Shown here in pieces: positions 9,991 through 60,283 of a stretch of 64,000 nt of DNA (its first letter is position 1; each line of letters opens with the position of its first letter). The translations under genes were made by a program, and so were the position numbers. Where the stretch lies: the NCBI GenBank assembly GCA_938045545.1, contig CALIBN010000015.1:20962-84961 (forward strand), written 5' to 3'. Under the pieces are notes generated by a model. That model did no database searches. It saw nothing but the letters and a program-made list of their open reading frames with translations, and was not told where the DNA came from. Origin of the DNA: an uncultured archaeon. GTDB lineage: Archaea > Thermoproteota > EX4484-205 > JAAOZP01.

Positions 9991-10128
9991 TATGCTGTAG
10001 ATTCTTCACATTACACGCGCTTTACGTTTTTATAATTTATCCTTTGCAATTTTTCTTACCCTGTTATAAGCCTGATTCTTAATATTCGTTGTAAAAGCTT
10101 AATAGCAGGATTAGGAATTAGTTTCTTC

Positions 10129-29726: not shown

Positions 29727-29941
29727 ATAGAGGTATCCTCTAAGGCCTACAACTAGGGCATCTCTCCATAGCGTGCCACCTCCCAACTAAGGAAAGAAGT
29801 TTTACTCGTCTACTGTCCAATAGTAAATCAGCTGCTATTGAATACATTATGAAGCAAGTGTGCACTATACGCGTATGGCGAGCCGGTTTGACATATTCCT
29901 CAACCCGAGTAGTGAGCATGGAAACCCGATTCTAAAGAATG

Positions 29942-39028: not shown

Positions 39029-40093
39029 TCAACCATTGCATTCACCGTAATAATTCATGAAGTCCTCGAACGCTGTGCAGACTGCGTCTATGTTTTCAAG
39101 CGGAACATCCGCGTGGATCTCGGAATACATCATTAAGCCGCCTTTCTCAGAACCCAGTTTGACAACAGCCTCCTGTATATGGCTCCTGATTTTTTCAGGA
39201 CTGCCAAAGGGCACTATGAGCTGCCGGTCTATGTCTAGGTCGATGCAAACCCTTCCCTTAATCTTCTCCCTTATATTGTCTATCCCGTTAACCCTATCCT
39301 GAATGTTTAAAACTGAAACCCCGGCTTCAATCAGGGCATCCGCCACCTCCATTATGTGACCGTCAGTATGCAGGTAAACCCTTATTCCTGATCTCCTAAC
39401 CCTCTGGAATATCTTTCTGTATGAGGGGTAGATGAACCTTCTGAAGGTCTTGACGCTGACAGGCATCCTGTCTTGAAGACCCAGGTCATCCCCGAAGGAA
39501 ACCATGTCAACCTTGAGCCTGATGAGCCTCTCGACCAGGGCTAGATTATAGTCAGTCAGCATCTCTATTAGTTTTTCAAGCTGACCGGTGTTTCTAACGA
39601 AGTCAATCATTAGGTTTTCAAAGCCCCGAAGATAATAGAGTCTTTGAAAGAAGAAGCCGTGAGGCATGCTTCCGACCACGATATCATCAGTGTTTCTCGC
39701 TCTATCTATCCTCTCCTCAATCGCGTCCCAAGGGTCTACTCCACCACCCTCCTGAACAATGCCTCTCTCCGGGTCTGGCAGACTGTAGTGCACTAGGTCA
39801 GCCCAATCCTCCAAAGGATGTTTCACAACCTGCCCCTGGAGTCCGCTTATATTGAACCTCCACAAGCATCCGAAGGCATCTAGAACCTCTCTCCCCCTGA
39901 CCCTGGCTCCGAAATCATTGAAGTTAACACTCCCTCTTTTAAAATCTGGGAAAAGCCTAGTATGCTTGGCAAGCAGGTCCTCAAGCTTCTCTCTATACTT
40001 GTTCCAAGCTGTTGGGAAAACTCCTAGCCTACAAGGGATCCATCCGCAGCCATTCATGTCTATGACTCTAAGCTTCTTCTCCCTGATGCTCAA
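39029..40093 (-). CDS. UroD/MtaA-CmuA family protein
   Basis: DAFGCLW, LRGFENLM, FGDDLGLQ, HTDG, DIDRQ, GGLM. Confidence 0.82.
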   Translation of the reverse strand: MSIREKKLRVIDMNGCGWIPCRLGVFPTAWNKYREKLEDLLAKHTRLFPDFKRGSVNFNDFGARVRGREVLDAFGCLWRFNISGLQGQVVKHPLEDWADLVHYSLPDPERGIVQEGGGVDPWDAIEERIDRARNTDDIVVGSMPHGFFFQRLYYLRGFENLMIDFVRNTGQLEKLIEMLTDYNLALVERLIRLKVDMVSFGDDLGLQDRMPVSVKTFRRFIYPSYRKIFQRVRRSGIRVYLHTDGHIMEVADALIEAGVSVLNIQDRVNGIDNIREKIKGRVCIDLDIDRQLIVPFGSPEKIRSHIQEAVVKLGSEKGGLMMYSEIHADVPLENIDAVCTAFEDFMNYYGECNG

Positions 40094-40197
40094 AACTAAG
40101 AATACGGGTTTTCAATCAAGCTTTAAACCTTACTTACAACTCGTACGCTTCGCCTAAGGCTAAAAACTTAAGTATTATCTGGAAACCCTGAGGAAAC

Positions 40198-41307
40198 GTG
40201 TTGAGAAACCCGGATATAACCAGGCTGCTTAAAGTCCTTCTGAGAGAGGGAGAGCCCGATAGAGTGCCCTTCTACGAGCATTTTGTAGACAACGAGGTTA
40301 TTGAGGCTTTAACCGGTAAGCCGGTGTCTAAGGCTTTAGCCGAAGGAGGCTTAAGCTCAGAGAAATACCTGGATATCCTGGTTGACTTTTATGCCAGGCT
40401 TGGATACGACTATGTTCCAATGGAGGTTCCCCCCAAACTTCCTAGGACGAACATTCTTCAGACGAACGATGTTGCTTATCTTTCCCGTGGGAAAAGGACT
40501 TGGGAGGATGAGAACAGGGGTGTGATTGAGACAATCGAGGATTTTGAAAAATATCCTTGGCCTAACGCGGATGAGGCGCTGGATTTTTCAGTATTTGAAA
40601 GGCTGAGGAGGAAACTGCCTGAAGGCATGGGTGTTGTTGGAGGCGTTGCAGGAGGGTTCTTCGAGCATGCGAGCTGGCTTATGGGGCTTGGAAAACTCTG
40701 TAGGGCTGTGCACCTAGACAGGAGGCTTGTTGAAAAAATGTTCAGCAGGGTCTCCTCGCTCATTCTTGCTTTAGATGAGACAATAGTTAGAGAGGGGTTT
40801 GTTGATGCTCTTAGAATGGGTGACGACTTGGGCTATAAGACAGGCACATTCCTGGCGCCTAGGATTCTGAGGGAATACGTTTTCCCAAACTACAGGAGGC
40901 TGGCCGATTTGGCACATGGGCGGGGGCTTCCCTTCATAATACATTCCTGTGGAAACCTGTATACTCCTGATGAAACTGGGAGAACAGTGATGGACGACCT
41001 TGTAGAGAGCGTCAGGATAGATGCCAAACATTCTTTCGAGGACAACATAATGCCGGTATACGAGGTTAAGGAGAAGTATAGGGGGAAGATAGCGGTTTTG
41101 GGCGGTGTAGATATGAATAAGCTTGTTCAACTGCCGGAGAAAAACCTAAGGGAGCATGTTAGGCTAATAATTAAGAAGTGTGCGCCGGGAGGCGCCTATG
41201 CTCTAGGCTCTGGAAACACGATAGCTAACTATGTGCCTTTAGAAAACTATCTCGCGATGCTTGACGAAGGCTTTAGAAGAGGAACATACCCGATAGAGAT
41301 AAGTTGA
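40198..41307 (+). CDS. UroD/MtaA-CmuA family protein
   Basis: EPDRVPFYE, YPWP, GDDLGYK, HSCG, LGGVD, GGAYALGSGN. Confidence 0.85.
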   Translation: MLRNPDITRLLKVLLREGEPDRVPFYEHFVDNEVIEALTGKPVSKALAEGGLSSEKYLDILVDFYARLGYDYVPMEVPPKLPRTNILQTNDVAYLSRGKRTWEDENRGVIETIEDFEKYPWPNADEALDFSVFERLRRKLPEGMGVVGGVAGGFFEHASWLMGLGKLCRAVHLDRRLVEKMFSRVSSLILALDETIVREGFVDALRMGDDLGYKTGTFLAPRILREYVFPNYRRLADLAHGRGLPFIIHSCGNLYTPDETGRTVMDDLVESVRIDAKHSFEDNIMPVYEVKEKYRGKIAVLGGVDMNKLVQLPEKNLREHVRLIIKKCAPGGAYALGSGNTIANYVPLENYLAMLDEGFRRGTYPIEIS

Positions 41308-41318
41308 GAAACATGCTA

Positions 41319-42476
41319 TTAAGTCTTTAAAATCTTGTCTAAGTGTTTGAAGTTCTCCTTCCTGATCGGATACTTTCCAACCTTTTTAGCATATTCAACC
41401 TCGTACCTTAAGAGTTCAGGAGGAACGTTGGCATATGTTTCGCCACCGTTGTCGAAAGCATAGCCACCACCAGCTGCAGCGTGAAATATGCATTTCTCAA
41501 CCTCAAGCTCAATGTTTTCAAAAGATCCGTTGACTAGAACCCTCCAGTCAGCGTTGCCGTTGAAGAACACTTTCCCCTTAAATGCTTCAGCAATCTTTTT
41601 AATATCGTTCTCAACGCCCACATCGGCCTCATTTATCCTGTAAATGTTTACAAGTATGCCCGTTATGTGGTCCATGTGAGAATCCATGTGCAAGTAACGA
41701 TATTCAGTACCGTGCCGCTCGTAAAGCCTCAGGTTATAAGGCAGCGTGAACTCCTCGTACATATCCTTGCTCAAGTAGCCCGAATGATCGTCGGCCAGGC
41801 CGAGGCTCCCTGGTCCAGAACCAGAAATCTCATAGTAATATTCCTGAAGCTGGTTGAAGGTTTCCTCCAGTTTTCTGAAAAGCCTATGCATGTCGCTGGG
41901 ACTCTCGTAGAGCCAGCGGTACAGTTTCTCGGGACCAGTCAACGAGCCTGCAGCTGAAACCGGTGGATGTATCTGGAGCCTGCCGCCGACTGGAAGACCC
42001 TCATAGTTTTTCCTGACAAGCTCCCTAAACTTTTCAAGCTTCTCATAGTAAGCCTGAATACCCCTGTGGCGACGAGGGTCAGGAACCTCCAGCCTATCGA
42101 TATCCTCAAGGGTCTTAATCCGGGGGATTATCCATGGGCTGAGCCAAGGGTTTCTCTCATCCGGCATTTCAATCTTGCAGTCGAAAACAATGCCTTCAGA
42201 TACGGCTCCGAGGTCTAGATGCACTCGTATTTCTGTCAAATCATCCTTAAGCCATCTGAGCCTCCATTTCAACCCTTTCACCTGAGCATCCAGCATTATA
42301 CTCATGTCGTTGTAATATTCGGCAAAAGTATAGTCGAAGAGCCTAGCATAATATGGGCCTCCAAGCCCTATGACCACCGGAACCCTGTCAGACTCCTTGA
42401 ACTGGGCAGCTTCCTCCAAACGCTTCCTATTCTCCTCTAGAACGCTAGAATACTTGGCTCGGTTGAAGGGCTCCAT
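41319..42476 (-). CDS. UroD/MtaA-CmuA family protein
   Basis: SDRVPV, LADD..GYLS..MYEEF.LPY, HMDS, FNGN, GGGYAF. Confidence 0.8.
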   Translation of the reverse strand: MEPFNRAKYSSVLEENRKRLEEAAQFKESDRVPVVIGLGGPYYARLFDYTFAEYYNDMSIMLDAQVKGLKWRLRWLKDDLTEIRVHLDLGAVSEGIVFDCKIEMPDERNPWLSPWIIPRIKTLEDIDRLEVPDPRRHRGIQAYYEKLEKFRELVRKNYEGLPVGGRLQIHPPVSAAGSLTGPEKLYRWLYESPSDMHRLFRKLEETFNQLQEYYYEISGSGPGSLGLADDHSGYLSKDMYEEFTLPYNLRLYERHGTEYRYLHMDSHMDHITGILVNIYRINEADVGVENDIKKIAEAFKGKVFFNGNADWRVLVNGSFENIELEVEKCIFHAAAGGGYAFDNGGETYANVPPELLRYEVEYAKKVGKYPIRKENFKHLDKILKT

Positions 42477-42613
42477 CGGGAATGCTCAATAAAACCATCC
42501 TATTTAAAACTTAGGCTGCTAAACACTATGACCAGTAATTGCCCAAATGCTTATTTCTAAGACGACTTGCGGCGATGATCTTAAATATGTCTGCAGCAGG
42601 CGGGAGAGGTGAC

Positions 42614-44578
42614 ATGCTGATGAAGGATAGAATCTTCCCGGCTTTCAAGAGGCCCAGGAAGCTCAGGGTACTTGATGTCCGCCCATATTCTTGGCATGAA
42701 CAGATGACGATAACTTGCGCACAGGGCTTGATCAACCGTGTTATGCCAAGAGTCTATCTGGTTTTCGACGATTACGTTGACAGGCTGTGGTTGTCAATCT
42801 ACGGGAAAAGATACGGTGTTAAGCATGAGGAGGTTAACAGCCTCTACGAGCTACTGTCATACTTTAGAAAGGAAATAGCAGGGTTTGTGGTTTACGACGA
42901 GAACATGCTGCACTCTTCGAACGTGGCTATGACTTACGGGAGTATTCGCAACGCGGTTCCAGCGTCACCAGAGGTTGCGGAAAGGCTTTCTGAAGCTGGC
43001 TTCAGGAAAGTAGCCGACTTCAGGGGGAGATGGAGAAACAGGCTTGAAGCCTACGAATGGGCTTTTCAAAACTTGATGAAGCAGTGTAACAGAAGGATTG
43101 TTGGAAGTATGTGTGTAGACCCTCCTTTAACCTCCTTCACGAATAAGCATCATGTTAGAGACTATCTTGTTGCGGTGAAAGCATTCTCGTTCGACCTTTC
43201 CACCAAGATTAGGGACCGCCGGGAAGTAGAATTGTTCGACAGGATACTTGGCTCTTTCGACTCTTTAGGAGTGGTTTTAGGATGGCACTGCATCAGGGAC
43301 CTTGAGTCAGAGGCTGTTGCAAGAGCCTCTAGAAATGGTTTCTTCGTGCTTTGCAACCTGAGTTCTCCAAACTTGACTGTCCATTCGGGTATAAAGACTA
43401 ATTTCAAGTTTAAACAGAAGCACGCCAGCAAAGTAACATTGGAGGATAAGGTTTACGTGACTTTCGTACAGTCTGACGGAGACGCTATTTGGGCGATGAA
43501 CAATTTTCAAAACCTTAACTGGCTTGACAGCCAGAGGGGAAGGTTTCCATACACGTGGGAGATCCAACCCCTGTTGCTGGACCTAGCACCCGGAATGCTT
43601 GAGCACTACTATAGGACTGCTACTTCAAACGATTATTTCATAGCAGGACCTTCTGGAGCAGGCTATACGGCGCCAAGCGTTAACAAGCGCCTTGACGAGT
43701 TTCTCGTGCAGACTAGTAGGTATATGGAGGCGTGTGATTTAAGATCCATATTGATCATGAACCGTAACCCCCGGGTGGCCTATCAGGAGCTTGAAGACCC
43801 GAGGATACCTGAGGCTTTTGCCAAAGGGCTTAAAAACTGTTTCGGATTCCTACATGGTTACGCGGGGTCGGCTTTCGAGCCAGCCATCTTCGTCGACAAT
43901 ACGCCCTATTTTCACACCACGCTTTACGCTTCCGCTTCAACCGATATTCTGAAAGAGCTGAAGAGGCTTGTGGAAGGTTGTGAAACACGACCATTATTCG
44001 TCTCAATACACGTTAGAGAGGAGGTTAAAATGCCGGTTTTACGCAGCGTAATAGAAAAACTTAGTGGTGGAACATATAGGGTTGTGAAGACGGATGAGTT
44101 CATGCTTGCCTTGAAAAAGGCGTATGAAAAAGGCCTGTTTAAACAAGGCTTCTCAGAATCAGCGGGAGAGTCCCTTAAGGAGAACGGTAAAACAGTTTGG
44201 GAAAACTGTCGCCGGAGGGTTGAACGCTTAGAGAAGCTGGTTGAAATGGATGAGCAAGGGATGCTGGCGGAGTATGACTCCGGCGGATATGGTTTCACCG
44301 TGGAGGAGCTGCCGGATCTTTTGGCTTACGACGCGGTTGAGACAGCGCTACGTCTTGTCCAGGCAGCGCTGAACATTAAGGGAGTCTACGCGAACAGCAT
44401 TGAGAAGAGCGTTGAAGACTTTCTGAAGGAGTACGGCGAGCTTCCTCAGGCTCAGGTAGTTGAAACAGTTTTAGAAACCTGGAGAAGCTGGGAGAAAGCA
44501 AAGTGCAGCATGGAAGAGGCGAGGACGCTGGCGAGAAGAGTAATCGGGTTTGCGAAGGCTCTCGGTGAAAAACTTTAG
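42614..44578 (+). CDS. GxGYxYP-family putative glycoside hydrolase
   Basis: AQGLINRVMPRVY, VLGW, NLTVHS, SDGD, RGRFPYTW, DYFIAGPSGAGYTAP; SD GAGGTGA before ATG 42614/42620. Confidence 0.82.
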   Translation: MLMKDRIFPAFKRPRKLRVLDVRPYSWHEQMTITCAQGLINRVMPRVYLVFDDYVDRLWLSIYGKRYGVKHEEVNSLYELLSYFRKEIAGFVVYDENMLHSSNVAMTYGSIRNAVPASPEVAERLSEAGFRKVADFRGRWRNRLEAYEWAFQNLMKQCNRRIVGSMCVDPPLTSFTNKHHVRDYLVAVKAFSFDLSTKIRDRREVELFDRILGSFDSLGVVLGWHCIRDLESEAVARASRNGFFVLCNLSSPNLTVHSGIKTNFKFKQKHASKVTLEDKVYVTFVQSDGDAIWAMNNFQNLNWLDSQRGRFPYTWEIQPLLLDLAPGMLEHYYRTATSNDYFIAGPSGAGYTAPSVNKRLDEFLVQTSRYMEACDLRSILIMNRNPRVAYQELEDPRIPEAFAKGLKNCFGFLHGYAGSAFEPAIFVDNTPYFHTTLYASASTDILKELKRLVEGCETRPLFVSIHVREEVKMPVLRSVIEKLSGGTYRVVKTDEFMLALKKAYEKGLFKQGFSESAGESLKENGKTVWENCRRRVERLEKLVEMDEQGMLAEYDSGGYGFTVEELPDLLAYDAVETALRLVQAALNIKGVYANSIEKSVEDFLKEYGELPQAQVVETVLETWRSWEKAKCSMEEARTLARRVIGFAKALGEKL

Positions 44579-44630
44579 AAGGCTTTCAAATGGTTTACTA
44601 TGTGAGCGAGCTGAAGTCCTCCCGCTCCAG

Positions 44631-45017
44631 TCATGCGATGAGCAAGGCTACAGCTATCGCAACGTCGCTCGTCCTATCGTGGCTTAAGCTGATCAAAATG
44701 TTTCTCGCACCCTTCTCGCGAAGAATATTTAGAAGCGTTTCGCTCATAACCACCCTAGCCTCTTGGTCGACGGCCTCGACCTCAACACCCCTCCACCCAA
44801 GCCGACTCCTGCTAGCACGGCCTATTGCTTTGAAAACCGCCTCCTTAGCCGCAAACCTGACGGCCAGCTTCTCATAAGAATAGCCTGATTGAAAACAGTA
44901 TTCAAGCTCTCTTTCTGTGAAAACCCTTTTTAGAAAACTTGCGCCACATTTTTCTATAGCCTTTTTAACCCTGCTTATCGAAACAACGTCCACGCCGACC
45001 CCGATTATCAAGCCCAA
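44631..45017 (-). CDS. acpS: Holo-[acyl-carrier-protein] synthase
   Basis: IIGVGVDVV, RVFTERE, LAVRFAAKEAVFKAIG, ISLSHD. Confidence 0.93.
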   Translation of the reverse strand: MGLIIGVGVDVVSISRVKKAIEKCGASFLKRVFTERELEYCFQSGYSYEKLAVRFAAKEAVFKAIGRASRSRLGWRGVEVEAVDQEARVVMSETLLNILREKGARNILISLSHDRTSDVAIAVALLIA

Positions 45018-45026
45018 CTGGACGCG

Positions 45027-45272
45027 TTAGCGCCCTGCTTGAGCCAGCTTAGCCTTTATGTACTCGACAACCTGTCCGACCGTCTGGTTTTTCTCCGCCT
45101 CCTCCTCAGGAATCTCCAGGTTGAAAGCCTCCTCAAATGTTGCAATAAGTTCAACAGTGTCTATGGATTCAGCCATAAGGTCGTCCACGAGGGAAGTGTC
45201 ATCCCTCAAGCTGTCAACGCTTACGCGGAAGTGTTCAGCTATTATCTTCTTAACCTTCTCCTCAACCGACAT
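45027..45272 (-). CDS. acpP: Acyl carrier protein
   Basis: MSVEEKVKKIIAE...DDLMAESIDTVEL...FEEAFNLEIPEEEAEK..TVGQ; aligns with bacterial AcpP, Ppant Ser retained. Confidence 0.92.
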   Translation of the reverse strand: MSVEEKVKKIIAEHFRVSVDSLRDDTSLVDDLMAESIDTVELIATFEEAFNLEIPEEEAEKNQTVGQVVEYIKAKLAQAGR

Positions 45273-45273
45273 T

Positions 45274-46554
45274 CTATAGGCCTCCTCGCTCCAATCTTGC
45301 CTCTGCCTTCCTTATTAAAGTTTCCCTCTCCTCCCTAGTGTCCTGATATATTTTCTCAAGCATTCTGATGTAGCTCTCAGACATTACGATCGACCTCCTA
45401 GACATAACCCTCTTCTCCGCCTCAACGGTCCTTCTGAAGCCAGCCCCCCTTCTCAACCTCCCCTCGGCATACCAGGAGAAGCTTGGAATGTATTTTGGAA
45501 GAACCTCCCCGCCGAGGAGGACGCATGCTACTCCGACAACAGTCCCGGTGTTCAGCAGGCAGCCTATGCCGAACTTCGTGTGATCACCTATGAAGCTCCC
45601 TACCTTTATGTCTCCCGTGTCCATTAGCCTACCTTTAACATAGACGTCAACATTGCTATAATCGTTCTTCAAATCGCTATTAGTGGTGAGAGCGCCGATA
45701 TTAACCCACTCACCAACGTACGCATGGCCGAGGAAACCCGTGTGATACTTGTTAGAATAACCTTGGATGATGCTCGCCTCAACCTCTCCGCCAACCCGGC
45801 AGACAGGTCCTATGCTCGTCTCCTCCCTTATGTTTCCGCGAACGACCCAAGTATCCCTGCCGATGTAGCATGGGCCCTCCACGCGGCTGAACGGATATAT
45901 CCGTGCACCCTCGTCAACCATTATTGGGCCGGAGCTAGTGTCGAGCACGACGAAAGGATGTATGGCTGCACTCTTACTAACGTGAAGCATGCTCTTATCG
46001 CCGACGACAGCAATCCTCTCTTCTAACGCTTTAACCCCCTCCTTCTTAGACCAGTATGCCTCAAAATCCTCCTTGAGCAACTCGTGATTATACTGGACGA
46101 GATGCCATGGGTACTCCACCATCCGGGCATCAACCTGCTTTACGCTGAGCTCAGACCTCAGTTTTTCAATAGTCTTCTGAAGAGTATCCGAAAGGTTTTT
46201 CCTAATGGTTTCCCTCTTGACGCGAATATAAACGATATCGCCCTTACACATGGCGATAATCTCATCGTCCTCGGAAGGGAGGCGGCCGTGCTCTGGAAGC
46301 CACCTTCCGTTAACTAAAAGAGCGTCATCCCTACTCAGATCCTCAAGGCTGTTCACAGCAGCATCTCCAAGCCTTTCCCTTAGAACTAGTGCTAAGTGAT
46401 CCCTGACGAAAAAAGAGGTTTCAACACCAGGATTAATCCTCCTGATTCTCTCGACCAGCGTCATAGACCCGCATCTCAACTCGAAAGTAGCCCTTGTAAG
46501 CGTTAACGGGTAAAGAAGGTCATACTTCTCATCCTCGAATAGGCATATCTTCAA
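45274..46554 (-). CDS. Alternative-GlmU-like protein (putative sugar nucleotidyltransferase N-domain plus left-handed beta-helix acyltransferase)
   Basis: LYPLTLTRATFELRCG, YPWHL, IGPVCRVGGEVE, SNKYHTGFLGHAYVGEWVNIGA..NSDLKN, GSFIGDHTK. Confidence 0.85.
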   Translation of the reverse strand: MKICLFEDEKYDLLYPLTLTRATFELRCGSMTLVERIRRINPGVETSFFVRDHLALVLRERLGDAAVNSLEDLSRDDALLVNGRWLPEHGRLPSEDDEIIAMCKGDIVYIRVKRETIRKNLSDTLQKTIEKLRSELSVKQVDARMVEYPWHLVQYNHELLKEDFEAYWSKKEGVKALEERIAVVGDKSMLHVSKSAAIHPFVVLDTSSGPIMVDEGARIYPFSRVEGPCYIGRDTWVVRGNIREETSIGPVCRVGGEVEASIIQGYSNKYHTGFLGHAYVGEWVNIGALTTNSDLKNDYSNVDVYVKGRLMDTGDIKVGSFIGDHTKFGIGCLLNTGTVVGVACVLLGGEVLPKYIPSFSWYAEGRLRRGAGFRRTVEAEKRVMSRRSIVMSESYIRMLEKIYQDTREERETLIRKAEARLERGGL

Positions 46555-46583
46555 TCCTTCTCACCGCTGCCAGCTTTATGTTT

Positions 46584-47795
46584 TTAACGGTTTAATAAGT
46601 GTTTCCTAGTCTCCTCAGCAATAGCAAGCTCCTCATCGGTCGGTACAACTAGAACCCTAACCTTAGACTGCTCGCTGCTTATTACCCCGGTTCTGCCCAC
46701 CGTGGCCCTGTTCGCATCCTCGTCGATCTTCAACCCCAGGAAACCCAGGTTGTCGCATATCATTCCCCTTATGAGAGGATCGTTCTCACCTATCCCCCCT
46801 GTGAATACCAGTACGTCAAGCCCGCCAAGTACCGCAGCGTAGGCGCCTATATACTTCTTAGCCCTGTAAGCGAAGACCTCCAGCGCGAGCCTGGCCCTCT
46901 TGCTGCCAGCCTCAGCCTCCCTCTCCACATCCCTGATGTCGTTGCTAACGCCTGAGACACCTAGTAGACCACTCTTCTTGTTAAGCATGTCTTCAACTTC
47001 TCTAGGGGGAAAGCCTTCGCCGATAAGGTAGAAAACTATCGAAGGATCTATGTCCCCGCTCCTAGTTCCCATGACTAGTCCTTCCAGCGGAGTGAAACCC
47101 ATGCTAGTATCTATTGAGCGGCCGTTCTTAACAGCGGTGATGCTGCACCCGTTTCCGAGATGACAGGTTATCATCCTGAGTTTCTCAATAGGCTCGCCGA
47201 GGATTTCAGCAGCCTTCTGGGCAACATACTTGTGGCTTGTCCCGTGGAAACCGTATCTCCTGATTCCGAACTTCCCGTAAAGCTCATATGGTATGGCGTA
47301 GAGATAGGCTGTCTCCGGCATGGTCTGGTGGAAAGCGGTGTCGAACACGGCCACCTGGGGGACGCTTGGAAGAAGGCTTCGCGCAGCCTCTATACCAGCT
47401 ATGTTGGGAGGATTATGGAGTGGAGCCAGTTTAGCCCATTTCCTAAGAGCGCCAAGAACATTCTCGTCGACGATGGTGGATTCGAAGAAAGCATCCCCGC
47501 CGTGAACAACCCTGTGTCCAACAGCAACTATCTCCCTAAGCGAATCAATAGCCTTGGGCTCAGCTTCGAGGAGAATCCTGAGGATGATCTCAAGGCCCTG
47601 CCTATGGTTGGAAACATCGACCTCGCTCCTCGCTACTATTCCACTGACCTCATGCCTAAGTATTGCCGGCCTGCTTCCAATTCTTTCAAGCAAGCCGCTG
47701 GCAACGCCTGTCAGCGAATCGGCGTCGAAAAGTTTGTATTTTATGGAGGAGCTGCCGCAGTTTACAACGAGTATTTTTCCCGGCAACCGTGTCAC
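46584..47795 (-). CDS. ackA: Acetate kinase
   Basis: [64 protein letters not shown]. Confidence 0.96.
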
Positions 47796-48796
47796 CCGGC
47801 TGACTGCGCTAGAACAGAGACAACGGCTATAGCCCCAACAATATCTTCAACCTTAGCACCCCTTGAAAGGTCGCTGACAGGCTTCTTGAAACCCTGGAGA
47901 ATAGGTCCATAGGCCCCGGCTCCAGCCACGTGTTGAGTAAGCTTGTACGCGATGTTCCCAGCGTCAAGGTCTGGAAATATCAGGATGTTTGCCCTCCCAG
48001 CAACGGGGCCGAGGTCCCTCAGCTTCTTCCTTGCGACTTCGATCACGAGTGCCGCGTCAGCCTGAAGCTCCCCGTCAACCTTTATTTCAGGCGCTCGCCT
48101 CCTAACGATCTCCGTGGCTCTCGCCACCTTATCCACAAGAGGGTGGATCGCGCTACCCTTGGTTGAGAAGGAGAGCATCGCAACCCTCGGCTCCCAGCCT
48201 AGTAGCCTGCTGACGCTTCTGGCAGTAGATATAGCTATGTCCGCAAGCTGCTCAGGAGTGGGGTCTGGGTTTACTGCAGCGTCAGCGTAAACCAAGACGC
48301 CGTTTTCACCAATACTCTTTTTCATAGTCTCCATTATGAAGAAGCTTGAAGGTGTTTCAACCCCTTCTTCATACCCGATTACAAGATGGCTCGCCTTAAT
48401 AACGTTTGCAGTAGTGGTGGAGGCGCCGGCAACCATGGCGTCAGCCAAACCCGTTTTAACCATCATGCAAGCAAAGTAGAGCGGCCTGCTAAGTATTCTT
48501 CTCGCAACAGCCTCGCTGACGCCCTTCTCCTCCCGGATCCTGCAGTACTCCTTGACAAAACCGTCTAAATAGCCGGAGGCCGACGGGTCTACGACTTCAA
48601 CTCCGGTTAAGGATAAGCCTAATTCAGCAGCATTCTTCTCCACGGTTTCCCTAGAGCCCAGCAGTATTGGCTTTGCAACACCCTGCTCCACGGAGGCGAC
48701 AGTCGCTCTCAATATTCTCTCATCCTCAGGCTCCGGTAGAACAATCCTCATCGGCTTCTCCCTAGCCCTGTTCTTTATCAACTGGATTACCGACAA
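47792..48796 (-). CDS. pta: Phosphate acetyltransferase (short form)
   Basis: IVLPE, VSS-like [49 protein letters not shown]. Confidence 0.95.
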
Positions 48797-49001
48797 TCCG
48801 CCGGGGAAAAACTGAGGAATTTAATAAACTTTTTGCACTAGACATCTTCTATGAATACTGTTAATCAGCCTGGATTCGTGCAACGGGGCTGCGGCTCTTT
48901 AAATACGCTGGGCACAATACTGCAACGCGTTTCCCGTATTAATATGGCAAGAAATAATTAACACGAAAGCCTTTTTAAAGGAGGCATGATGATAACTTGG
49001 G

Positions 49002-50066
49002 ATGAAAATAAGATCTGTAACGCTTTTCGCAGCATCTGGAGACATGAAGAGCGTTAGGGAGCGTATCGCCAACCTGGGTTCAATGCTTTCATTCCACATG
49101 GAATCAATGTTTCTCTCGGAAAGTGTTTGGAGCACCAGGGTGGCGCTTCCACCCCTAGGCGAGCAGGAGTCACCCATGAAACGGGCCTCTCAGCTTCTGG
49201 ATCTAAATGTCGTAAACTATGTTTCGATAGGGCAGGTTGAGGACACGCATCCGGCTTTAGACGAGGCTGCGGAGGTTGCTGAAAACGGGCTCTACGTGTC
49301 GATAAACATGAGGAACGTCAGTAGAATTAAGAGCATTGTAAACGTTCTGAGGAAAGCTTGTGAAAAAAACCCTTCCAATGGAAGCCGGATATGCGTCAAT
49401 ATGGGTGGAAACATTGTTACACCCTACTTTCCTTCAGCATGCAACCTTCATGGTGAAGAAGGATTGGCGATATCCCTGCTGTATCCCAGCCTGCTTAGAC
49501 ACAAGCATTTAAGCCAGTTTCAAGACATTCTCGCCGAAGTTTACGCTTCTACCGAGAAGGTTGGGCTGAAGCTTTCAGAGAGGCTAGGGGTCAATTACTA
49601 CGGGATCGACGTCTCACTGTCGCCGTGGATGGAGGAGAGCGTTGCAGAGATCATCGAGTTCACCTCGGGGGTTAAAATGCCTCTTCCAGGAACCTTCAGC
49701 ATCATCAGGGAGATAAACAGTCTGATTGGGAACGCTGTTAAAACAGCCGGGATAAAGGCAACAGGCTATAACGAGGTAATGCTGCCGGTTGCAGAGGACA
49801 ATGTTCTGAAGGAGAGGGTTGCTGCAGGAGAAGTTAAGCTTAGGGACCTTGTACACTTGGCTTCAGCATGCGTTTCAGGGGTTGACATGGCTGTGGTTTC
49901 AGACAATGCTCCGAGCAGGATTATAGAGGGGGTTTTTAAAGACCTTTTTGAAGTAAGCATGTTGAAAGACAGGGCCACAGGGTTGAGAATAATTTTCACA
50001 CCTGCAGAACCGGGTGAAACAGTTAAACTTAATTTCTTCGGGTGGACACCAGTAATATTCCCCTAA
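49002..50066 (+). CDS. DUF711/UPF0210 family protein
   Basis: MKIRSVT, TPYFP, GIDVSLSPW..ESV, GYNEVMLPVAED, CVSGVDM. Confidence 0.8.
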   Translation: MKIRSVTLFAASGDMKSVRERIANLGSMLSFHMESMFLSESVWSTRVALPPLGEQESPMKRASQLLDLNVVNYVSIGQVEDTHPALDEAAEVAENGLYVSINMRNVSRIKSIVNVLRKACEKNPSNGSRICVNMGGNIVTPYFPSACNLHGEEGLAISLLYPSLLRHKHLSQFQDILAEVYASTEKVGLKLSERLGVNYYGIDVSLSPWMEESVAEIIEFTSGVKMPLPGTFSIIREINSLIGNAVKTAGIKATGYNEVMLPVAEDNVLKERVAAGEVKLRDLVHLASACVSGVDMAVVSDNAPSRIIEGVFKDLFEVSMLKDRATGLRIIFTPAEPGETVKLNFFGWTPVIFP

Positions 50067-50100
50067 AGCTTTATATTTCAAGCGGGAGTGTTAACTTGGT

Positions 50101-50307
50101 ATGGGGGTAGTTCATAGGCCGGATGATATTCTCAACAGGAGGAGACGCATCGAAATCGTTTTGAGAGACCTTAACCCTGGCGTTAGAGAACTCGTGCTCA
50201 ACATAGTGGACTCTTGGAAAGGCAGGGAATCCGTTGAGAATTTGAAGCGTGCTGTCGGCGAGGAGAAGGCTATGAAAATAGTTAAAGAGCTAAACCTGCA
50301 AGATTAA
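50101..50307 (+). CDS. Small hypothetical protein
   Basis: 68-aa ORF with a TATA-like tttatatt about 25 nt upstream. Confidence 0.5.
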   Translation: MGVVHRPDDILNRRRRIEIVLRDLNPGVRELVLNIVDSWKGRESVENLKRAVGEEKAMKIVKELNLQD

Positions 50308-50718
50308 CGTTTAACCATAGACGGTGAAGAGGATTCAGGCTACCTACGGCCATATTTCTTCCCAGAAAGTAACGTAGTGGCCGCCTTCGCAGCTTGCAAC
50401 CCGCCCTCCGAAGAGAGAACCCATTTCACGTTATAGTGGCAAAAATAAGAGCATGTCTCTCATTCCATTGGCAACGCCGGTCAACCCATTGTTTCATCCT
50501 TATACGCTTTTTCGGAACACTCCGTCGTGAACTTTCTCATCGTCTAGCCAAGGTGCTCAAGTAAAAAAGGATCAGTGGAAGGGCAAGATGTAATGGCCCC
50601 GTGGACTTTCATACTTCTCACTCTCCTATTATTATCTTCAACATTACACTATAAATTTAACGATGTCCTTAGTGCAGTAGAGCAGGTTTCGAGGAAAACT
50701 AATGCCGATTGGCTTCTC

Positions 50719-52206
50719 CTAGCCCGGCTTCGTAGCTATGGCGCAGAAACGGGCGTAAGCATCTTCAACGGATTCTCCACGCTCCGGTTCGAATACTCTG
50801 AAATCAAACGAATTCCTAACTATCTGCCTTATATCCTTATGGGATCTCACGAAACCCATTGCATATGCTTGCATGAGAATGTTGCCGATGGAGGTTGCCT
50901 CCACCGGCCCGGCAATTACTTTTATCCCGGTGAAGTCAGCGGTAAGCTGGTTCAGCAACCAGTTTCTAGACCCGCCCCCAATGATGTTAATCCGGTTTAT
51001 TTTTCTCCCGGTCAACTCCATTATCCTTTCTAAGACGAGCCTGTATTTGAAGGCCAGGCTTTCGAGTATTATTCTAACCATCTCACCCTCATCCCTCGGC
51101 TTCTCCTGATTAGTCTCGTCTAGGTAGCGTGTTATTTCCTCAACCATGTTCGCCGGGGCCATGAACCTCCCATCATCAGGGTCGATGAAAGCCACGAATC
51201 CTCTGGACTTGCTTGCAAGATGAGTTAGTTCATCGTAAGAGTATTCCTTGCCCTGGCTAATCCAGTTTCTCCTGCATTCCTGAAGGAGCCACAACCCTTG
51301 AACGTTGCGTAGAAACCTGAATTTTCCGAGGACACCTCCCTCATTAGTGAAGTTGTATTCCAACGAGTTCCGGCTTATGATCGGCTTATCTACTTCAATA
51401 CCCACGAGGGACCAGGTTCCGGAGCTTATGTAGGCCGACCCCTCGTCCTCGAGGAGTGCTGCTGCCACTGCAGAAGCCGTGTCGTGGCAGGCAGGAGCTA
51501 CGATCGAAACCCTACCGCTAAGTTTAAGCTCTTCAGCGAGGTACACGGAGATTTTACCGAGCACGGTTCCAGGCTTAACTATCTCAGGCAGGAAATGCGT
51601 CGGGATTCCCAGCCTCTCTAGGAGTTCATAGTCCCAGTTGTCCTTAGACGGGTTATAGAATTGTGTGGTTGTGGCGTCCGAAAACTCTGAAACCTTTACG
51701 CCGGACAGCCAGTAGTTGAACAGGTCGGGCATCATCAGGAATTTGTCCGCGGCCTTGAGCATTGAGGACTTGTTTAAGACCAGTGAATACAGCTGGTAAA
51801 GGGTGTTCAGCCTCATGAACTGGATTCCCGTCCTGAAATAGATCTCTTCCCTTGAAACCCTTTTAAAAACTTCTTCAAAGGCACGTTCCGTCCTGGGATC
51901 CCTATAGTGATGAGGGTTCCCGAGAAGCTCACCGTTGCTATCTAGGAGCGCGAAGTCCACGCCCCAAGTGTCCACGCCGATCGATTCAAGGTTTCCGTTC
52001 AACTTAGAGCTGGCGAGCGAGGCAGCGTTCTTAACCTCGCTCCATATCCTTAAAACATCCCAGAATACGCTATCCCCTATTTTCACCGGCATGTTTGGAA
52101 ACCTATAGATTTCATTCACCTCTATCTTATTCTCGGCGAGTATTCCGATTAGTGCTCTACCACTCTCCGCCCCAAGGTCAAAAGCGAGAAAGGCGGGATT
52201 ATGCAT
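50719..52206 (-). CDS. rhaB: Rhamnulokinase (FGGY family)
   Basis: FDLGAESGR, IGVDTWGVD, YRDPRT, TGIQFM, HDTASA, ISSGTWSL, FTNEGG, GPVEAT. Confidence 0.88.
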   Translation of the reverse strand: MHNPAFLAFDLGAESGRALIGILAENKIEVNEIYRFPNMPVKIGDSVFWDVLRIWSEVKNAASLASSKLNGNLESIGVDTWGVDFALLDSNGELLGNPHHYRDPRTERAFEEVFKRVSREEIYFRTGIQFMRLNTLYQLYSLVLNKSSMLKAADKFLMMPDLFNYWLSGVKVSEFSDATTTQFYNPSKDNWDYELLERLGIPTHFLPEIVKPGTVLGKISVYLAEELKLSGRVSIVAPACHDTASAVAAALLEDEGSAYISSGTWSLVGIEVDKPIISRNSLEYNFTNEGGVLGKFRFLRNVQGLWLLQECRRNWISQGKEYSYDELTHLASKSRGFVAFIDPDDGRFMAPANMVEEITRYLDETNQEKPRDEGEMVRIILESLAFKYRLVLERIMELTGRKINRINIIGGGSRNWLLNQLTADFTGIKVIAGPVEATSIGNILMQAYAMGFVRSHKDIRQIVRNSFDFRVFEPERGESVEDAYARFCAIATKPG

Positions 52207-52617
52207 GAACTCTTAAAGCATAGTAAATTTTAAGCTTTTCCCTATGGAACAATAAAAAACGTTAAACTGTAATTAACCACACGGATTGAATGGTTTTATT
52301 TCTCACTTATCGACTCTCTAACTCTATTTTCATCTCTTATATTTATAGCTTTTAAGCCTATTTTCTGCGCAGCACCAACGAGATTCTTATCACCGCTGAG
52401 TAGCGCATCAGTACCGGAATAAATACAAGTTTGAATCCGTAGGGCATCGGCCTCATAGATGTCCTTTTAAAATTAGAGGCCAAGTTTCAACAAGCATTGT
52501 ATTTTAGAATCGGAAACACCCACAATATTTTTAAGTGCAATAACCTACCAACATCCAAAGCCATGGCGACCGATCGGCATATTCCTGCTGATTCGAAGGA
52601 ATTCTCAGGATGCGCAA

Positions 52618-53367: not shown

Positions 53368-55743
53368 TCAGCCCCATTCGACATCAAGTATATCGTTAGC
53401 CCTTAATATAACGGGTGGTGAGAATTCAACCCTAAGACGGCCCTCAGTGGGGACAGAGCGTGCAGGAATCTGGGCTCCATTTATCCTGACAGATGCTCGG
53501 CGTAAAGCTCGTCTAAGGGGTCGCGTTGACAACGAGGCCAGCTCGAGGAAGCCCCGACGTACCTCCAACTTTAAGTGTTGTGTCCTCCCGACCTCTTGCC
53601 ACAGCTTACCGTAGGCCGTCGGCGTAATCCAGGGGCCGCGCGTTTTCTCGGGGTGGAACACCGGCGCCACCGTTAGGGCCTTTTCGACGGCGTTGTATTC
53701 CCAGCCCTGCAGGATCTTAAGCAAGCTCCATAGGCATTGCGTACGCAGATAATGGTGAAACGCACGCGGATGGGGTTTCCCATTGCTGGCAAGGATGCAG
53801 TCCGGGATGTCCCATAGGCCGCCTGGGTTCGCCGCGGTGAAGGTGTCGTATATCCTTCTCAAGAGCATTAGGCCCTCCGTTAAATCGACGTTTCGAATCA
53901 AACCTATGACCGTCGGAAGCATCCAGCAGACGATTATCTGCACGCGGTCATCATCTGGTATCACGATGGAACCATCGGGCAGGGCTCCGCAGACCAAGCC
54001 GTATAGGCTCGGGGCACCGTTGTATTTGGCGATGGCCCGTAGGGCTTGCTTCGTGTGCTCGGGCGGCAACAACTCCCCGAGGCCCGTGAATTCCGCCAGC
54101 AATTCGCCGTATATCTGGTCGACCATGCAAATCGGGCTTTGGCGCCCCTCGGGATCCGCGGAAAAGGCATAGTATTCTCCATTCCACAGCTTAGCCTTTA
54201 TGGCATCCAGGCCGCGCAGGAATCGTGACCGCATCCTCTCGGCCTCCTCCTTTTCTCCCACGGCGTTGGCGAGGACCTCAGCGGCCCTCAGGCCGGCCAG
54301 CCACATGGTTGCAGTATAGCTCGGCAGGTAGCCGAGGTCCCATAGATCCCAACTGGTGCGACTCCCCCCAACATGGTCCGGCAGTCCATCGCCGTCTTCA
54401 TCGAATCGTTCGGCGTAATGAATGGCCCGCCGCACCGGGGGCCAAGTATGTTGCAAGAAGCCCTCGTCCCCGGTTTCCTTAAAACGATGCCAGACCTCCA
54501 CGGCATATTTTGGGCTCAAATCCACGAGGTCGCGACCGCCGGGATGGGTGATGGAGGGTCCAGTCGTGCTGACGTCTCCCCATTGCTCCGGCATTTGTCC
54601 ACTGGGATATTGCACGTCGGCATACCGGCTGAGGAGGTCTAATTCCAATTCCGGAAAAAGGTCTAGTAGAAGCCAGTTCGCTAGGTCGATCAGGTGAACG
54701 GGACTACAATTCGGGCAGTTGAAGGACTCGTATTGGACGAAGCGCCCATCGTGTACCCACCAGGAGCTCTTGACCAGGTTAGCTTGAATGTTAACCAGGA
54801 GGTCGCTGACCCAGCTGGGCCAGGATGCGTCGCAGATGGTATCTCGCCACGTAGCGCTCTCCGCCAGAAGAACATCGTAGCGACGGGCGAACTCCCGTAC
54901 GACCTCCCTAGCTGAGTTGAACCAGGCTTGGTAACGATGTCCGACCAGCGGACCCGTGCCGTTCTCCCTATGGTTTGGGAAGAACCAGCCGACGACCAGC
55001 CTTAAGGTCCATTCACCCCCTAGAGGAACGGCGACGGGAATCACGAGTATGAAACGCTGACCTTCTGCGGGCTCTTCATTTCCCTGAATTGCGCCTTGAG
55101 AGAAGCCCTGCCAGAAGCTGAGCAAAGATTCGGCATCGTCCTTCCCTCCGAGGACGAAGCGCGCCGGGGCATCCAAGGAAGCGGCGGCCAAGCCACCGTA
55201 GGGGCCGTCGCAAGATGCTACGAAGCCATCCGTGGTGCATACGTCCCCCAGGGGGTTGACGAAGGATGCCGCCAGCGTCACATCCAGGGGCTTATCGCCA
55301 CGGTTGCGGAAACGGAACGTTAGGCCGAATGCGGGCAATCCCGAGTCCTCGGGTCGATGGGGTATGAAGGATGAGAAGGCTTCCAACGATGCGCTCAACG
55401 GGACGTCCTCAGGTAGGGAATAACGCAGGTTGGCGAACGGAAATTTACCATCGTATTCGATCGCCCTAACCCCGGGCAAGCCGAGCGCCGGGGAGGTTTC
55501 CAGCACGAAGGCCTCGTCCCCGACCTTCAGAGCGATGAATGCATTCAATAGGTCATATGGTGGCGCATATTTCCAAATCCTTAGGACGAGGGCGTTTCCC
55601 CAATTGTTGAATATCTGCCATTCTCGGAAGGAACCATCTGCGCGTATTTCAACGGTGCCCGTCCCTAGGCCACCTAACGGTACGCCACCTACGAAAGCGC
55701 TCGCATCGCTACGCGTCGGAGCCGGCAGACTAATCTCATCCAA
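53368..55743 (-). CDS. GH116 (GBA2-like) glycoside hydrolase
   Basis: GVPLGGLGTG.VE, FPFA, QYES, DEDGDGLP, SWD.W, WLAGL, LWNGEYY, DQIYG. Confidence 0.85.
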   Translation of the reverse strand: MDEISLPAPTRSDASAFVGGVPLGGLGTGTVEIRADGSFREWQIFNNWGNALVLRIWKYAPPYDLLNAFIALKVGDEAFVLETSPALGLPGVRAIEYDGKFPFANLRYSLPEDVPLSASLEAFSSFIPHRPEDSGLPAFGLTFRFRNRGDKPLDVTLAASFVNPLGDVCTTDGFVASCDGPYGGLAAASLDAPARFVLGGKDDAESLLSFWQGFSQGAIQGNEEPAEGQRFILVIPVAVPLGGEWTLRLVVGWFFPNHRENGTGPLVGHRYQAWFNSAREVVREFARRYDVLLAESATWRDTICDASWPSWVSDLLVNIQANLVKSSWWVHDGRFVQYESFNCPNCSPVHLIDLANWLLLDLFPELELDLLSRYADVQYPSGQMPEQWGDVSTTGPSITHPGGRDLVDLSPKYAVEVWHRFKETGDEGFLQHTWPPVRRAIHYAERFDEDGDGLPDHVGGSRTSWDLWDLGYLPSYTATMWLAGLRAAEVLANAVGEKEEAERMRSRFLRGLDAIKAKLWNGEYYAFSADPEGRQSPICMVDQIYGELLAEFTGLGELLPPEHTKQALRAIAKYNGAPSLYGLVCGALPDGSIVIPDDDRVQIIVCWMLPTVIGLIRNVDLTEGLMLLRRIYDTFTAANPGGLWDIPDCILASNGKPHPRAFHHYLRTQCLWSLLKILQGWEYNAVEKALTVAPVFHPEKTRGPWITPTAYGKLWQEVGRTQHLKLEVRRGFLELASLSTRPLRRALRRASVRINGAQIPARSVPTEGRLRVEFSPPVILRANDILDVEWG

Positions 55744-60185: not shown

Positions 60186-60283
60186 ATCCACACCACCCTT
60201 CCGTAGATACGTTATGCTTAAAACCTTTCCTTTCAGGCTTCCAACGTTAAAATGCACCGTCAGGAGAAGATGGTGATGTAAAG

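Follow-up and report, generated by a model that had tools for sequence, protein, structure and literature searches.

A pta-ackA-acpP-acpS operon around a GlmU-like protein in an uncultured archaeon: a candidate carrier-protein module for amino-sugar acetylation

A contig assigned to an uncultured archaeon carries five consecutive genes that encode phosphate acetyltransferase (Pta), acetate kinase (AckA), a GlmU-like protein, an acyl carrier protein (ACP) and holo-ACP synthase (AcpS). The stretch of DNA analyzed here (the window) comprises 64,000 nucleotides (nt), positions 20,962–84,961 of contig CALIBN010000015.1 (C15), and belongs to a metagenome-assembled genome (MAG) of 2.03 Mb in 51 contigs with 92.05% completeness and 1.37% contamination; all coordinates below are window positions. 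In the open reading frame (ORF) listing of the window, the five genes stand in a row on the minus strand. The first-pass annotation had described them as same-strand genes with a 4-nt overlap and gaps of 29, 1 and 9 nt, which the listing reproduces exactly, and all family assignments exceed the curated cut-offs. The genes and the two signals recognized by eye are as follows (aa, amino acids).

48821-48828, minus strand: TATA-like box TTTATTAA, 25-32 nt 5' of the pta start codon (motif match by eye)
47792-48796, minus strand: pta, phosphate acetyltransferase, first gene of the operon (PF01515, 371 bits; TIGR00651, 339.8 bits, cut-off 311.2)
46584-47795, minus strand: ackA, acetate/propionate kinase, 4-nt overlap with pta (PF00871, 518 bits; TIGR00016, 521.1 bits, cut-off 293.4)
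46560-46565, minus strand: Shine-Dalgarno-like element GGTGAG, 6 nt before the start of the GlmU-like gene and within the 29-nt gap between ackA and that gene (by eye)
45274-46554, minus strand: gene for the GlmU-like protein, 426 aa, type-1 TIGR03991, 29-nt gap after ackA (TIGR03991, 381.8 bits, cut-off 225.3)
45027-45272, minus strand: acpP, AcpP-like acyl carrier protein, 81 aa, 1-nt gap (PF00550, 47.3 bits; TIGR00517, 80.6 bits, cut-off 70.45)
44631-45017, minus strand: acpS, holo-ACP synthase (4'-phosphopantetheinyl transferase), 128 aa, 9-nt gap (PF01648, 65.3 bits; TIGR00516, 63.2 bits, cut-off 59.8)

The TIGR03991 match of the GlmU-like protein extends over residues 1–403 (model positions 1–394), and the protein also matches PF13562 (88.1 bits; cut-off 27). 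The pta gene is the only PTA_PTB gene of the genome. The box TTTATTAA is a possible promoter of the archaeal type for a leaderless or short-leader operon transcript, and the GGTGAG element is consistent with the translation of an internal cistron on a single mRNA; together, they would agree with one transcript of the archaeal kind that contains internal ribosome-binding sites. The evidence supports the interpretation of the five genes as one operon and as a conserved gene module instead of a chance neighborhood, because an arrangement that is seen again at 9 of the 12 loci fetched from the same class and in dozens of unrelated genomes is far beyond chance.

The carrier protein and its recurrent neighbors

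To our knowledge, archaea are the textbook example of organisms that lack ACP. The operon ACP is the only PP-binding match in the whole genome, and the operon AcpS is the only ACPS match. The carrier has the attachment serine and exceeds the acpP cut-off; the context of a type II fatty-acid synthase (FAS) that usually defines AcpP is absent. The AcpS domain exceeds its curated cut-off, and its predicted activity would find the client carrier, the single ACP of the genome, only 9 nt away. Whole-genome profile searches detected no FabD (Acyl_transf_1), FabA/Z or FabH (ACP_syn_III) in the 92%-complete genome and also no true FabF; the ketoacyl-synt profile yielded only a thiolase-type match of 21.6 bits in a 406-aa frame, and comparable matches occur in all four archaeal control genomes. 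Nonribosomal peptide synthetases (NRPS) and polyketide synthases (PKS) are excluded because the genome has a single PP-binding match. The earlier observation that the window contains no fab, PKS or NRPS gene therefore extends to the entire 2.03-Mb genome, and the complete type II FAS elsewhere in the genome that might have explained the ACP was not encountered among the FabD, FabH, FabA/Z and FabF searches. These results support the view that the operon ACP is FAS-independent.

Within the archaeal class, the gene for the TIGR03991 protein is present in 25 of 26 genomes. ACP is present in 11 of the 26, always exactly once and never more than a few hundred bases from the TIGR03991 gene, and 9 of the 12 loci that were fetched show the order ackA-GlmU-like-acp-acpS. 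The single TIGR03991 match of the window genome is the ACP-linked one. Among the 401 genomes of an even sample of the phylum, any PP-binding match occurs in 32 genomes, and all strong matches to small, standalone ACPs (19/19) adjoin a TIGR03991 gene. The remaining 13 genomes include nine with weak matches (E values of 3.5e-6 to 9.4e-4), three with large multidomain proteins, and one with an 82-aa frame of the same family as two of these. TIGR03991 itself is much more common (137/401 genomes) than its pair with ACP, which is found in only 19. Pta was detected in 16 of the 401 genomes, all of which are among the 19 with the ACP/TIGR03991 pair; in 15 cases, no more than about 2.3 kb separate its gene from the TIGR03991 gene, and in the sixteenth, the contig with the TIGR03991 gene ends inside ackA. 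Because pta occurs only in genomes that carry the pair, pta-ackA may belong to a larger module instead of forming a free-standing acetate pathway.

Conserved synteny, which had been proposed as a check of the operon, is evident far beyond the class and extends over at least eight bacterial phyla and several archaeal lineages. A pattern search of contigs from one genome per species yielded 585 relatives; the 80 best loci were retained and scanned with the five window proteins. An ACP gene is located directly downstream of the GlmU-like gene and on the same strand in 38 of the 75 loci that offer at least 400 nt of room, and pta and/or ackA are located directly upstream in 22 of 80 loci (15 of the 57 with at least 2.5 kb of room), which stem from at least eight bacterial phylum labels and from archaea. 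The full order pta-ackA-GlmU-like-acp is present in Bathyarchaeota B24 and B26-2, whose loci have an identical five-gene order, in MAGs labeled Thermofilaceae and Thermoproteales, and among bacteria in Aerophobetes, Omnitrophota and Planctomycetota, including Brocadiia. In Latescibacterota, Poribacteria, Ratteibacteria, and one MAG each labeled Cytophagia and Desulfobacteraceae, the arrangement is partial: pta or ackA adjoins the GlmU-like gene. The gene for AcpS adjoins the ACP gene at every archaeal type-1 locus examined (L001, L002, L012, L013 and 9/9 type-1 loci of the class); it is nearby in only one of the bacterial loci. Because AcpS is present at all archaeal ACP-linked loci examined, the module behaves as a unit that carries its own activating enzyme into ACP-free hosts. 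It is no archaeal invention: it is widespread in bacteria and seems to have entered archaea with AcpS attached.

The other neighbors at these loci point to acetyl-thioesters and amino sugars. ORFs of the NagB family (glucosamine-6-phosphate deaminase) are present in 24 of the 80 loci, a fused ADP-forming acetyl-CoA synthetase (ACD) in 6, always within a gene or two of the ACP gene, and an HMGL-like protein directly after the linked ACP in 13 planctomycete or poribacterial loci (e.g., L047, L067, L063 and L070); these counts are based on BLAST clustering, with four, one and one examples, respectively, checked against Pfam/NCBIfam. Two of the NagB examples were scanned with TIGR00502 (L023 and L002) and exceed its cut-off, as does the NagB encoded next to an ACP-free (type-2) gene at L104; for the other two examples, the check relied on Pfam. 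The HMGL-like protein of L047 (positions 9528–10949 of that locus; 475 aa) resembles homocitrate and isopropylmalate synthases at scores far below their cut-offs (128 bits versus 463) and may be a Claisen-type enzyme that uses acetyl-ACP. ACD takes the place of pta-ackA at L005, L026, L030, L045, L068 and L074; at L068, the GlmU-like gene and the ACD gene are each followed by a linked ACP. Pta-AckA and ACD catalyze the same net conversion of acetyl-thioester, ADP and Pi to acetate and ATP, and their alternation beside the same pair is a classic sign of a functional, not an accidental, link. The distribution of neighbors supports both a tie of the module to the enzymes that connect acetyl-thioesters with ATP, either Pta-AckA or ACD, and a tie of the GlmU-like enzyme to amino-sugar metabolism via the recurrent NagB or GlmS-isomerase-like neighbor.

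In bacteria, the linked ACP is accompanied by another one. All five bacterial genomes inspected encode a second ACP elsewhere, which scores higher on the acpP model (93.5–118 bits) than the linked ACP (69.6–83.7 bits); FabG-like and FabF neighbors of the second AcpP were confirmed with Pfam in one of the five genomes and judged from ORF sizes in the other four. A tree of 62 ACPs (53 linked, 5 housekeeping and 4 other), which is based on few columns and has moderate support, places the 53 linked ACPs on one side of a branch, apart from the housekeeping and other ACPs (Shimodaira–Hasegawa approximate likelihood-ratio test [SH-aLRT] 91, not starred), and unites the six ACD-adjacent ACPs in a subclade of their own (SH-aLRT 88). 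The tree excludes the window's own locus (L095) and L122, which had no phmmer match, and alignment A2 excludes the ACP of L010 because of its X residues. The attachment serine (S36), D31 and L32 are invariant in the 47 ACPs linked to a GlmU-like gene; S36 of the window ACP stands in an E-S-I context. While housekeeping AcpP usually has D-S-L at the attachment site, the linked ACPs mostly have G-A-E-S-(I/V), which may be a signature of the subfamily. The evidence supports the linked ACP of bacteria as a second, dedicated paralogue and, more generally, a GlmU-like enzyme that is tied to a dedicated ACP as a co-evolving pair.

The GlmU-like enzyme

The family TIGR03991 (alt_bact_glmU) is a hypothetical equivalog of GlmU, and the canonical GlmU models score the operon protein below their cut-offs (TIGR01173, 20.7 bits versus 366.85; TIGR03992, 96.7 bits versus 292.1). 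The sole significant sequence match in the PDB is ST0452 of Sulfolobus tokodaii (2ggo/5z09), which we take to be a sugar-1-phosphate nucleotidylyltransferase/N-acetyltransferase; the match is restricted to the beta-helix (query residues 207–352; E = 1e-20). The invariant H271 aligns with H308 of the ST0452 chain, presumably its catalytic base, so that the protein has a predicted hexapeptide-repeat acetyltransferase domain with a candidate catalytic histidine. Residues that are invariant in 72 sequences include F6, E7, H271, H277, K296, K354, R386 and R387.

The N-terminal domain is nucleotidyltransferase-like but lacks the signature of these enzymes, which consists of a G-x-G-(T/S)-R loop and a catalytic lysine after P-x-T. 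There is no G-x-G in the first 30 residues; where ST0452 has LAAGSGERL...RPK, the family has FEDEK...R(P/A)(V/T), in an alignment segment that is not significant alone. The P-L-T...R stretch is kept, the glycine-rich loop is replaced by F-E-D (F6, E7 and D8 show little or no variation among the 72 sequences), and the following lysine is missing. Because the N-terminal domain has neither the loop nor the lysine, uridylyltransferase activity, and hence the name GlmU, is doubtful. The designation GlmU-like in the first-pass annotation therefore survives for the acetyltransferase half, with its alignment to ST0452 and H271, and fails for the nucleotidyltransferase half; as far as sequence can tell, only the former is credible, and the protein is not a bifunctional GlmU. 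The genome encodes another protein of 361 aa that resembles Arch_glmU (239 bits, below the cut-off of 292 bits).

The operon protein shares with ST0452 and the acetyltransferase domain of GlmU the two-domain architecture, the aligned invariant histidine and the amino-sugar gene neighbors; it differs from them by F-E-D in place of the loop, the missing lysine, a basic C-terminal tail and a dedicated ACP partner. Both GlmU and ST0452 use acetyl-CoA. The similarity to LpxA and LpxD comprises the left-handed beta-helix trimer, a substrate derived from glucosamine and an ACP-bound acyl donor, which is established for these enzymes and predicted for the operon protein. Complexes of LpxA and LpxD with ACP have been solved, and in LpxD, ACP docks on a C-terminal helical extension. 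By contrast, the operon protein scores far below the cut-offs of the respective models (TIGR01853, 19.9 bits versus 242.5; NF002060, 18.2 bits versus 207), stems from an archaeon without a lipid A pathway or FAS, and presumably transfers an acetyl group. Its beta-helix is followed by a conserved basic helical tail at the C terminus (K354, R386, R387 and R410), and K354 is replaced by glutamate in most ACP-free paralogues. This and other positions that differ between the ACP-linked and ACP-free clades (K354/E, D298/T, Y270/Q, N335/Y and G370/E) are suggestive only.

The two clades emerge from an unrooted tree of 102 TIGR03991 proteins (quick search, LG+G4; the window's own locus, L095, left out). 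Fifteen ACP-free genes, mostly second or sole copies in the same archaeal class, are split off with a support of 98*; on the other side are 87 type-1 genes, 47 of them with an adjacent ACP gene, and it is here that the window protein is placed. ACP-linked genes of archaea are interspersed among the bacterial ones at two or more positions, which fits more than one transfer between the domains. Because the tree is unrooted, the direction from bacteria to archaea is inferred solely from the fact that ACP, AcpS, Pta and AckA are bacterial by type. ACP-free archaeal copies adjoin genes for NagB and a UDP-sugar dehydrogenase or for a GlmS-isomerase-like SIS protein, which ties the whole TIGR03991 family to the chemistry of glucosamine 6-phosphate. 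At L104, L108 and L109, such copies overlap or abut the NagB and UDP-sugar dehydrogenase genes, or abut the gene of a protein with two SIS domains (380 aa), which matches only the isomerase half of GlmS and is GlmD/NagB-II-like.

Structure prediction adds little for the monomer. The AlphaFold model has a mean predicted local distance difference test (pLDDT) score of 66.6, with values below 50 in the beta-helix (residues 250–337); its best fold match is ST0452, followed by other proteins that combine a nucleotidyltransferase domain with a beta-helix, at template-modeling (TM) scores of 0.25–0.39. Because the model is poor in the helix, these matches indicate an ST0452- or nucleotidyltransferase-like architecture and no more. 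Three copies of residues 185–426, representing the beta-helix trimer, were also co-folded with ACP. The score was 0.55 (best of three controls, 0.00), with a partner pLDDT of 86 and at least 80% of the contacts shared among runs. Of 80 solved complexes, 58 reach the mark, as do 2 of 110 mismatched pairs; scores of no more than 0.60 account for 7 of the 80 solved complexes and for both mismatched pairs. Since structures of LpxA/LpxD–ACP complexes exist, the result may partly reflect the likeness to these enzymes.

Archaeal origin and surroundings of the operon

The bin contains a misbinned contig (C20; 3,150 bp) with the end of a bacterial 16S rRNA gene, tRNA-Ile, tRNA-Ala and 2.5 kb of a bacterial 23S rRNA gene, which is why contig C15 was checked separately. 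A gene for a Trm14-like tRNA methyltransferase (25694–26722), 18 kb from the operon, has 101 relatives at E ≤ 1e-20, and every named one is archaeal save the two lowest-ranking, which are from nematodes; the closest are from Brockarchaeota (94%), followed by Thermoproteota, Nitrosocaldus, Bathyarchaeia and Methanomethylicaceae. The GlmU-like protein has its closest relatives (93%) in MAGs named “Thermoproteota archaeon”, located on contigs as long as 235 and 279 kb. A public contig of 8,229 nt from a different study, which is approximately 95% identical (345 differences), spans positions 43185–50299 and crosses both ends of the operon, from inside the downstream GxGYxYP gene through the five genes to beyond the upstream DUF711 gene; a second public contig of 37 kb, possibly the source itself, covers all of 41000–52500. 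The G+C content at 44–48 kb (0.50–0.51) is inside the spread of the genome's contigs. Several tRNA genes elsewhere in the genome are longer than 85 nt (ARAGORN) and may contain introns. Over the contig's first 20 kb, NCBIfam models matched only metabolic genes, with nothing taxon-diagnostic beyond an archaeal-type TldD as best match below the cut-off, and a Pfam scan of further window ORFs detected no archaeal marker. The archaeal gene on the same contig and the independent contig that bridges both operon boundaries confirm that the contig is archaeal, of the Brockarchaeota/Thermoproteota type, as the phrase “in an archaeon” had implied, and that the segment is neither contamination nor a chimera.

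The operon is surrounded by carbohydrate-active genes, and carbohydrate-degrading genes are abundant in the window (GxGYxYP, GH32-like, GH31-like and FGGY kinase). They include the following.

42539-44578, plus strand: putative glycoside hydrolase of the GxGYxYP family, converging on acpS
53368-55743, minus strand: large glycosidase-like protein
57708-60257, minus strand: second large glycosidase-like protein
32731-34137, plus strand: GH32-type beta-fructosidase-like gene

Folate and one-carbon (C1) metabolism is represented by a set of genes at 1803–9234 that encode formate-tetrahydrofolate ligase (1803–3569), an MtrH-family methyltransferase (3724–4632), a 5-formyltetrahydrofolate cyclo-ligase fused to a longer protein (6566–7921), and FolC (7906–9234), and three genes of the URO-D family (MtaA-like) lie just downstream of the operon (39029–42476). 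The folate/C1 and MtaA-like genes fit the non-methanogenic methylotrophy that has reportedly been described for Brockarchaeota. ARAGORN called a permuted transfer-messenger RNA (tmRNA*) at 29727–30135 on the plus strand, which is probably false because it overlaps an ORF and a search of the whole window with Rfam yielded no RNA family; we know of no tmRNA in archaea.

A candidate acetyl-carrier pathway and its alternatives

Each piece of the operon has known counterparts, and the combination was not found described in the literature covered, which comprised papers in PubMed Central (PMC) under Creative Commons (CC) licenses and bioRxiv. These sources yielded nothing on TIGR03991, PF13562, or a bathyarchaeotal ACP with acetate kinase, and nothing that joins ACP, glucosamine-6-phosphate deaminase, acetate kinase and phosphate acetyltransferase, in agreement with the first-pass annotation, to which no description of the operon was known. 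As judged from titles and the opening of abstracts, the literature on acetyl-ACP and phosphotransacetylase also contained nothing relevant. The main text of the Brockarchaeota paper PMC8065059 mentions neither acetate kinase, phosphate acetyltransferase nor an acyl carrier, N-acetylglucosamine or fatty acid. Pta-AckA has already been reported from Bathyarchaeota. These bathyarchaeotal “acetogenesis” genes are the same bacterial-type pair, in B24 and B26-2 even in the identical five-gene order; in the phylum sample, the pta genes are always in genomes with the GlmU-like/ACP pair.

The reading that we favor, with the scales about level, is a horizontally mobile, FAS-independent carrier-protein module that has the type-1 enzyme and its dedicated ACP as its core and serves as an anabolic acetyl-ACP route. 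AcpS, assigned by family, would convert apo-ACP to holo-ACP. AckA and Pta would interconvert acetate plus ATP, acetyl-phosphate and acetyl-thioester, a task that would fall to the ADP-forming acetyl-CoA-synthetase-type enzyme elsewhere, and the thioester handled by Pta-AckA or ACD would be acetyl-S-ACP and not, or not only, acetyl-CoA. The GlmU-like enzyme would then catalyze acetyl transfer between acetyl-S-ACP and a glucosamine phosphate, whose amino group would be the acetylation site, and this step would connect the module to NagB and glucosamine 6-phosphate. In the anabolic direction, acetate would thus be converted via acetyl-ACP to N-acetyl-hexosamine phosphate for glycan precursors. 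We lean toward this direction over harvesting because TIGR03991 is nearly universal in the class (25/26) and the window genome has the ACP-linked type only. The more general proposal of an acetyl-ACP shuttle that is loaded by Pta or an ACD-type ligase and exchanges acetyl groups with glucosamine phosphates, and whose boldest form runs backwards, is tentative and falls somewhat short of an even chance.

Precedents exist for parts of this chemistry. PlsX, which shares its broad fold group with Pta, interconverts acyl-ACP and acyl-phosphate, the very exchange proposed for Pta and ACP; the operon gene, however, is a canonical Pta equivalog and not PlsX, and we know of no evidence that Pta accepts ACP. 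Citrate lyase and malonate decarboxylase have FAS-independent carriers that work as acetyl-S-ACP; their CitD and MdcC carry a different prosthetic group and are not AcpP-like, whereas the operon ACP matches the acpP models and subunits of these enzymes are not encoded here.

Several points weigh against the favored reading. Loading of ACP by Pta is purely inferred: the enzyme is a canonical equivalog and the only Pta of the genome, and it could be a normal CoA-dependent enzyme whose link to ACP is metabolic and not physical. All catalytic steps are predicted from the genes, and the association of the trimer with ACP draws weak support from the co-fold. Because the genome is 92% complete, the FAS absences are provisional. 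The pairing is not universal, as illustrated by a clade of 20 planctomycete type-1 genes without an adjacent ACP gene, and the 361-aa Arch_glmU-like protein might cover the ordinary synthesis of UDP-GlcNAc. The anabolic direction leaves an acetyl-ACP pool beside acetyl-CoA without a rationale, and NagB, Pta-AckA and ACD are typically catabolic or ATP-yielding enzymes in fermenters, which also suits the reverse direction.

Among the alternatives, the one that survives best, though unlikely, is that the GlmU-like enzyme uses its dedicated ACP while Pta-AckA do not load it, so that the acyl group would arrive by another route or be a different one, e.g., a short or hydroxylated acyl group in bacteria; Pta-AckA or ACD would be nearby simply through shared acetate/acetyl-CoA metabolism and joint transfer. 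This would agree with the canonical nature of Pta, which is the only one in the window genome and in genomes G030 and G031, with the lower frequency of pta/ackA (22/80 loci) than of ACP (38/75) beside the GlmU-like gene, and with the precedent of hexapeptide acyltransferases, LpxA and LpxD, that depend on long-chain acyl-ACP. Yet the genome has no FAS and the cluster no acyl-ACP synthetase, which leaves acetyl or propionyl groups from AckA/Pta as the only nearby acyl source, and the models of LpxD and LpxA stay far below their cut-offs (19.9 bits versus 242.5). The invariable presence of the pair in genomes with Pta (16/16 in the phylum sample) and the separate subclade of ACD-adjacent ACPs, which suggests that thioester enzyme and carrier co-evolve, also speak against this alternative.

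Slightly less probable still is the catabolic operation of the same module, in which the N-acetyl group of GlcNAc phosphate would be transferred to holo-ACP and converted by Pta-AckA or ACD to acetate and ATP, while NagB deaminates glucosamine 6-phosphate. Such a transfer from amide to thioester is endergonic by approximately 15–25 kJ/mol, as estimated with large uncertainty from standard free energies, and a net gain of ATP would require extreme metabolite ratios; a private carrier pool that is kept almost entirely deacetylated would permit the uphill step and would explain the need for a carrier separate from CoA. The recurrent partners, i.e., the deaminase NagB (24/80 loci) and the ATP-yielding, functionally equivalent Pta-AckA and ACD, would suit this direction, as would the Claisen-type consumer of acetyl-thioesters (HMGL-like, similar to isopropylmalate or homocitrate synthase) after ACP in 13 loci and the wealth of carbohydrate-degrading genes in the window. 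Against it stands the canonical NagA of the window genome (312 bits; cut-off 225.65), which also exceeds the cut-off in 18 of the 26 genomes of the class; moreover, the window genome has no other member of TIGR03991, which better fits a housekeeping, anabolic role. The presence of canonical NagA also means that the module does not simply replace the deacetylase, and a plain replacement of NagA was rejected in the absence of a complementary distribution.

It is quite improbable that the protein is an ordinary, acetyl-CoA-dependent “alternative GlmU” with ACP and AcpS as hitchhikers, even though this is what the curated NCBIfam name (hypothetical equivalog for GlmU) implies and most archaeal TIGR03991 genes have no ACP (137 of the 401 genomes hold the family and 19 the pair). 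The adjacency is conserved across both domains and at least eight bacterial phyla, the linked ACP forms a distinct clade that keeps its serine, and archaea that acquired the module retain AcpS with this ACP as its only possible client; ACP-linked and ACP-free genes are in separate clades (98* split), and the N-terminal domain without the nucleotidyltransferase signature would not make a bifunctional GlmU in any case. Finally, a bacterial contaminant or a chimeric assembly is hardly credible and was rejected: the bin does contain a bacterial contig (C20) and all five genes are of the bacterial type, but the same contig carries the archaeal Trm14-like gene, the G+C content is in range, the 8,229-nt contig from another study bridges both boundaries, and the cluster is present at 9 of the 12 loci fetched from the class and, in relatives, on contigs that reach 235 and 279 kb.

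With the favored module, the archaeal ACP would gain a concrete and testable function outside lipid metabolism, since every small, standalone ACP in the sample of 401 genomes adjoins a member of TIGR03991 and no FAS context was found in the genome examined. Should acetyl-ACP indeed be the currency, a new carrier-protein pathway would join acetate/ATP chemistry to the N-acetylation of amino sugars; in its boldest form, N-acetyl groups would be harvested as acetyl-ACP and then as ATP, an energy-conserving alternative to hydrolysis by NagA in energy-starved anaerobes. In bacteria, the module occurs in little-studied phyla (Planctomycetota, including relatives of anammox bacteria, Omnitrophota, Aerophobetes, Latescibacterota, Poribacteria, Elusimicrobiota and Ratteibacteria), where it is annotated merely as a “putative sugar nucleotidyl transferase” and a generic ACP. 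The pta-ackA pair is widely read as a marker of acetogenesis in related archaea. If the proposal is correct, the “acetogenesis” genes of Bathyarchaeia- and Brockarchaeia-type archaea would belong to this module, and metabolic reconstructions that rest on archaeal pta-ackA may need to be revisited.

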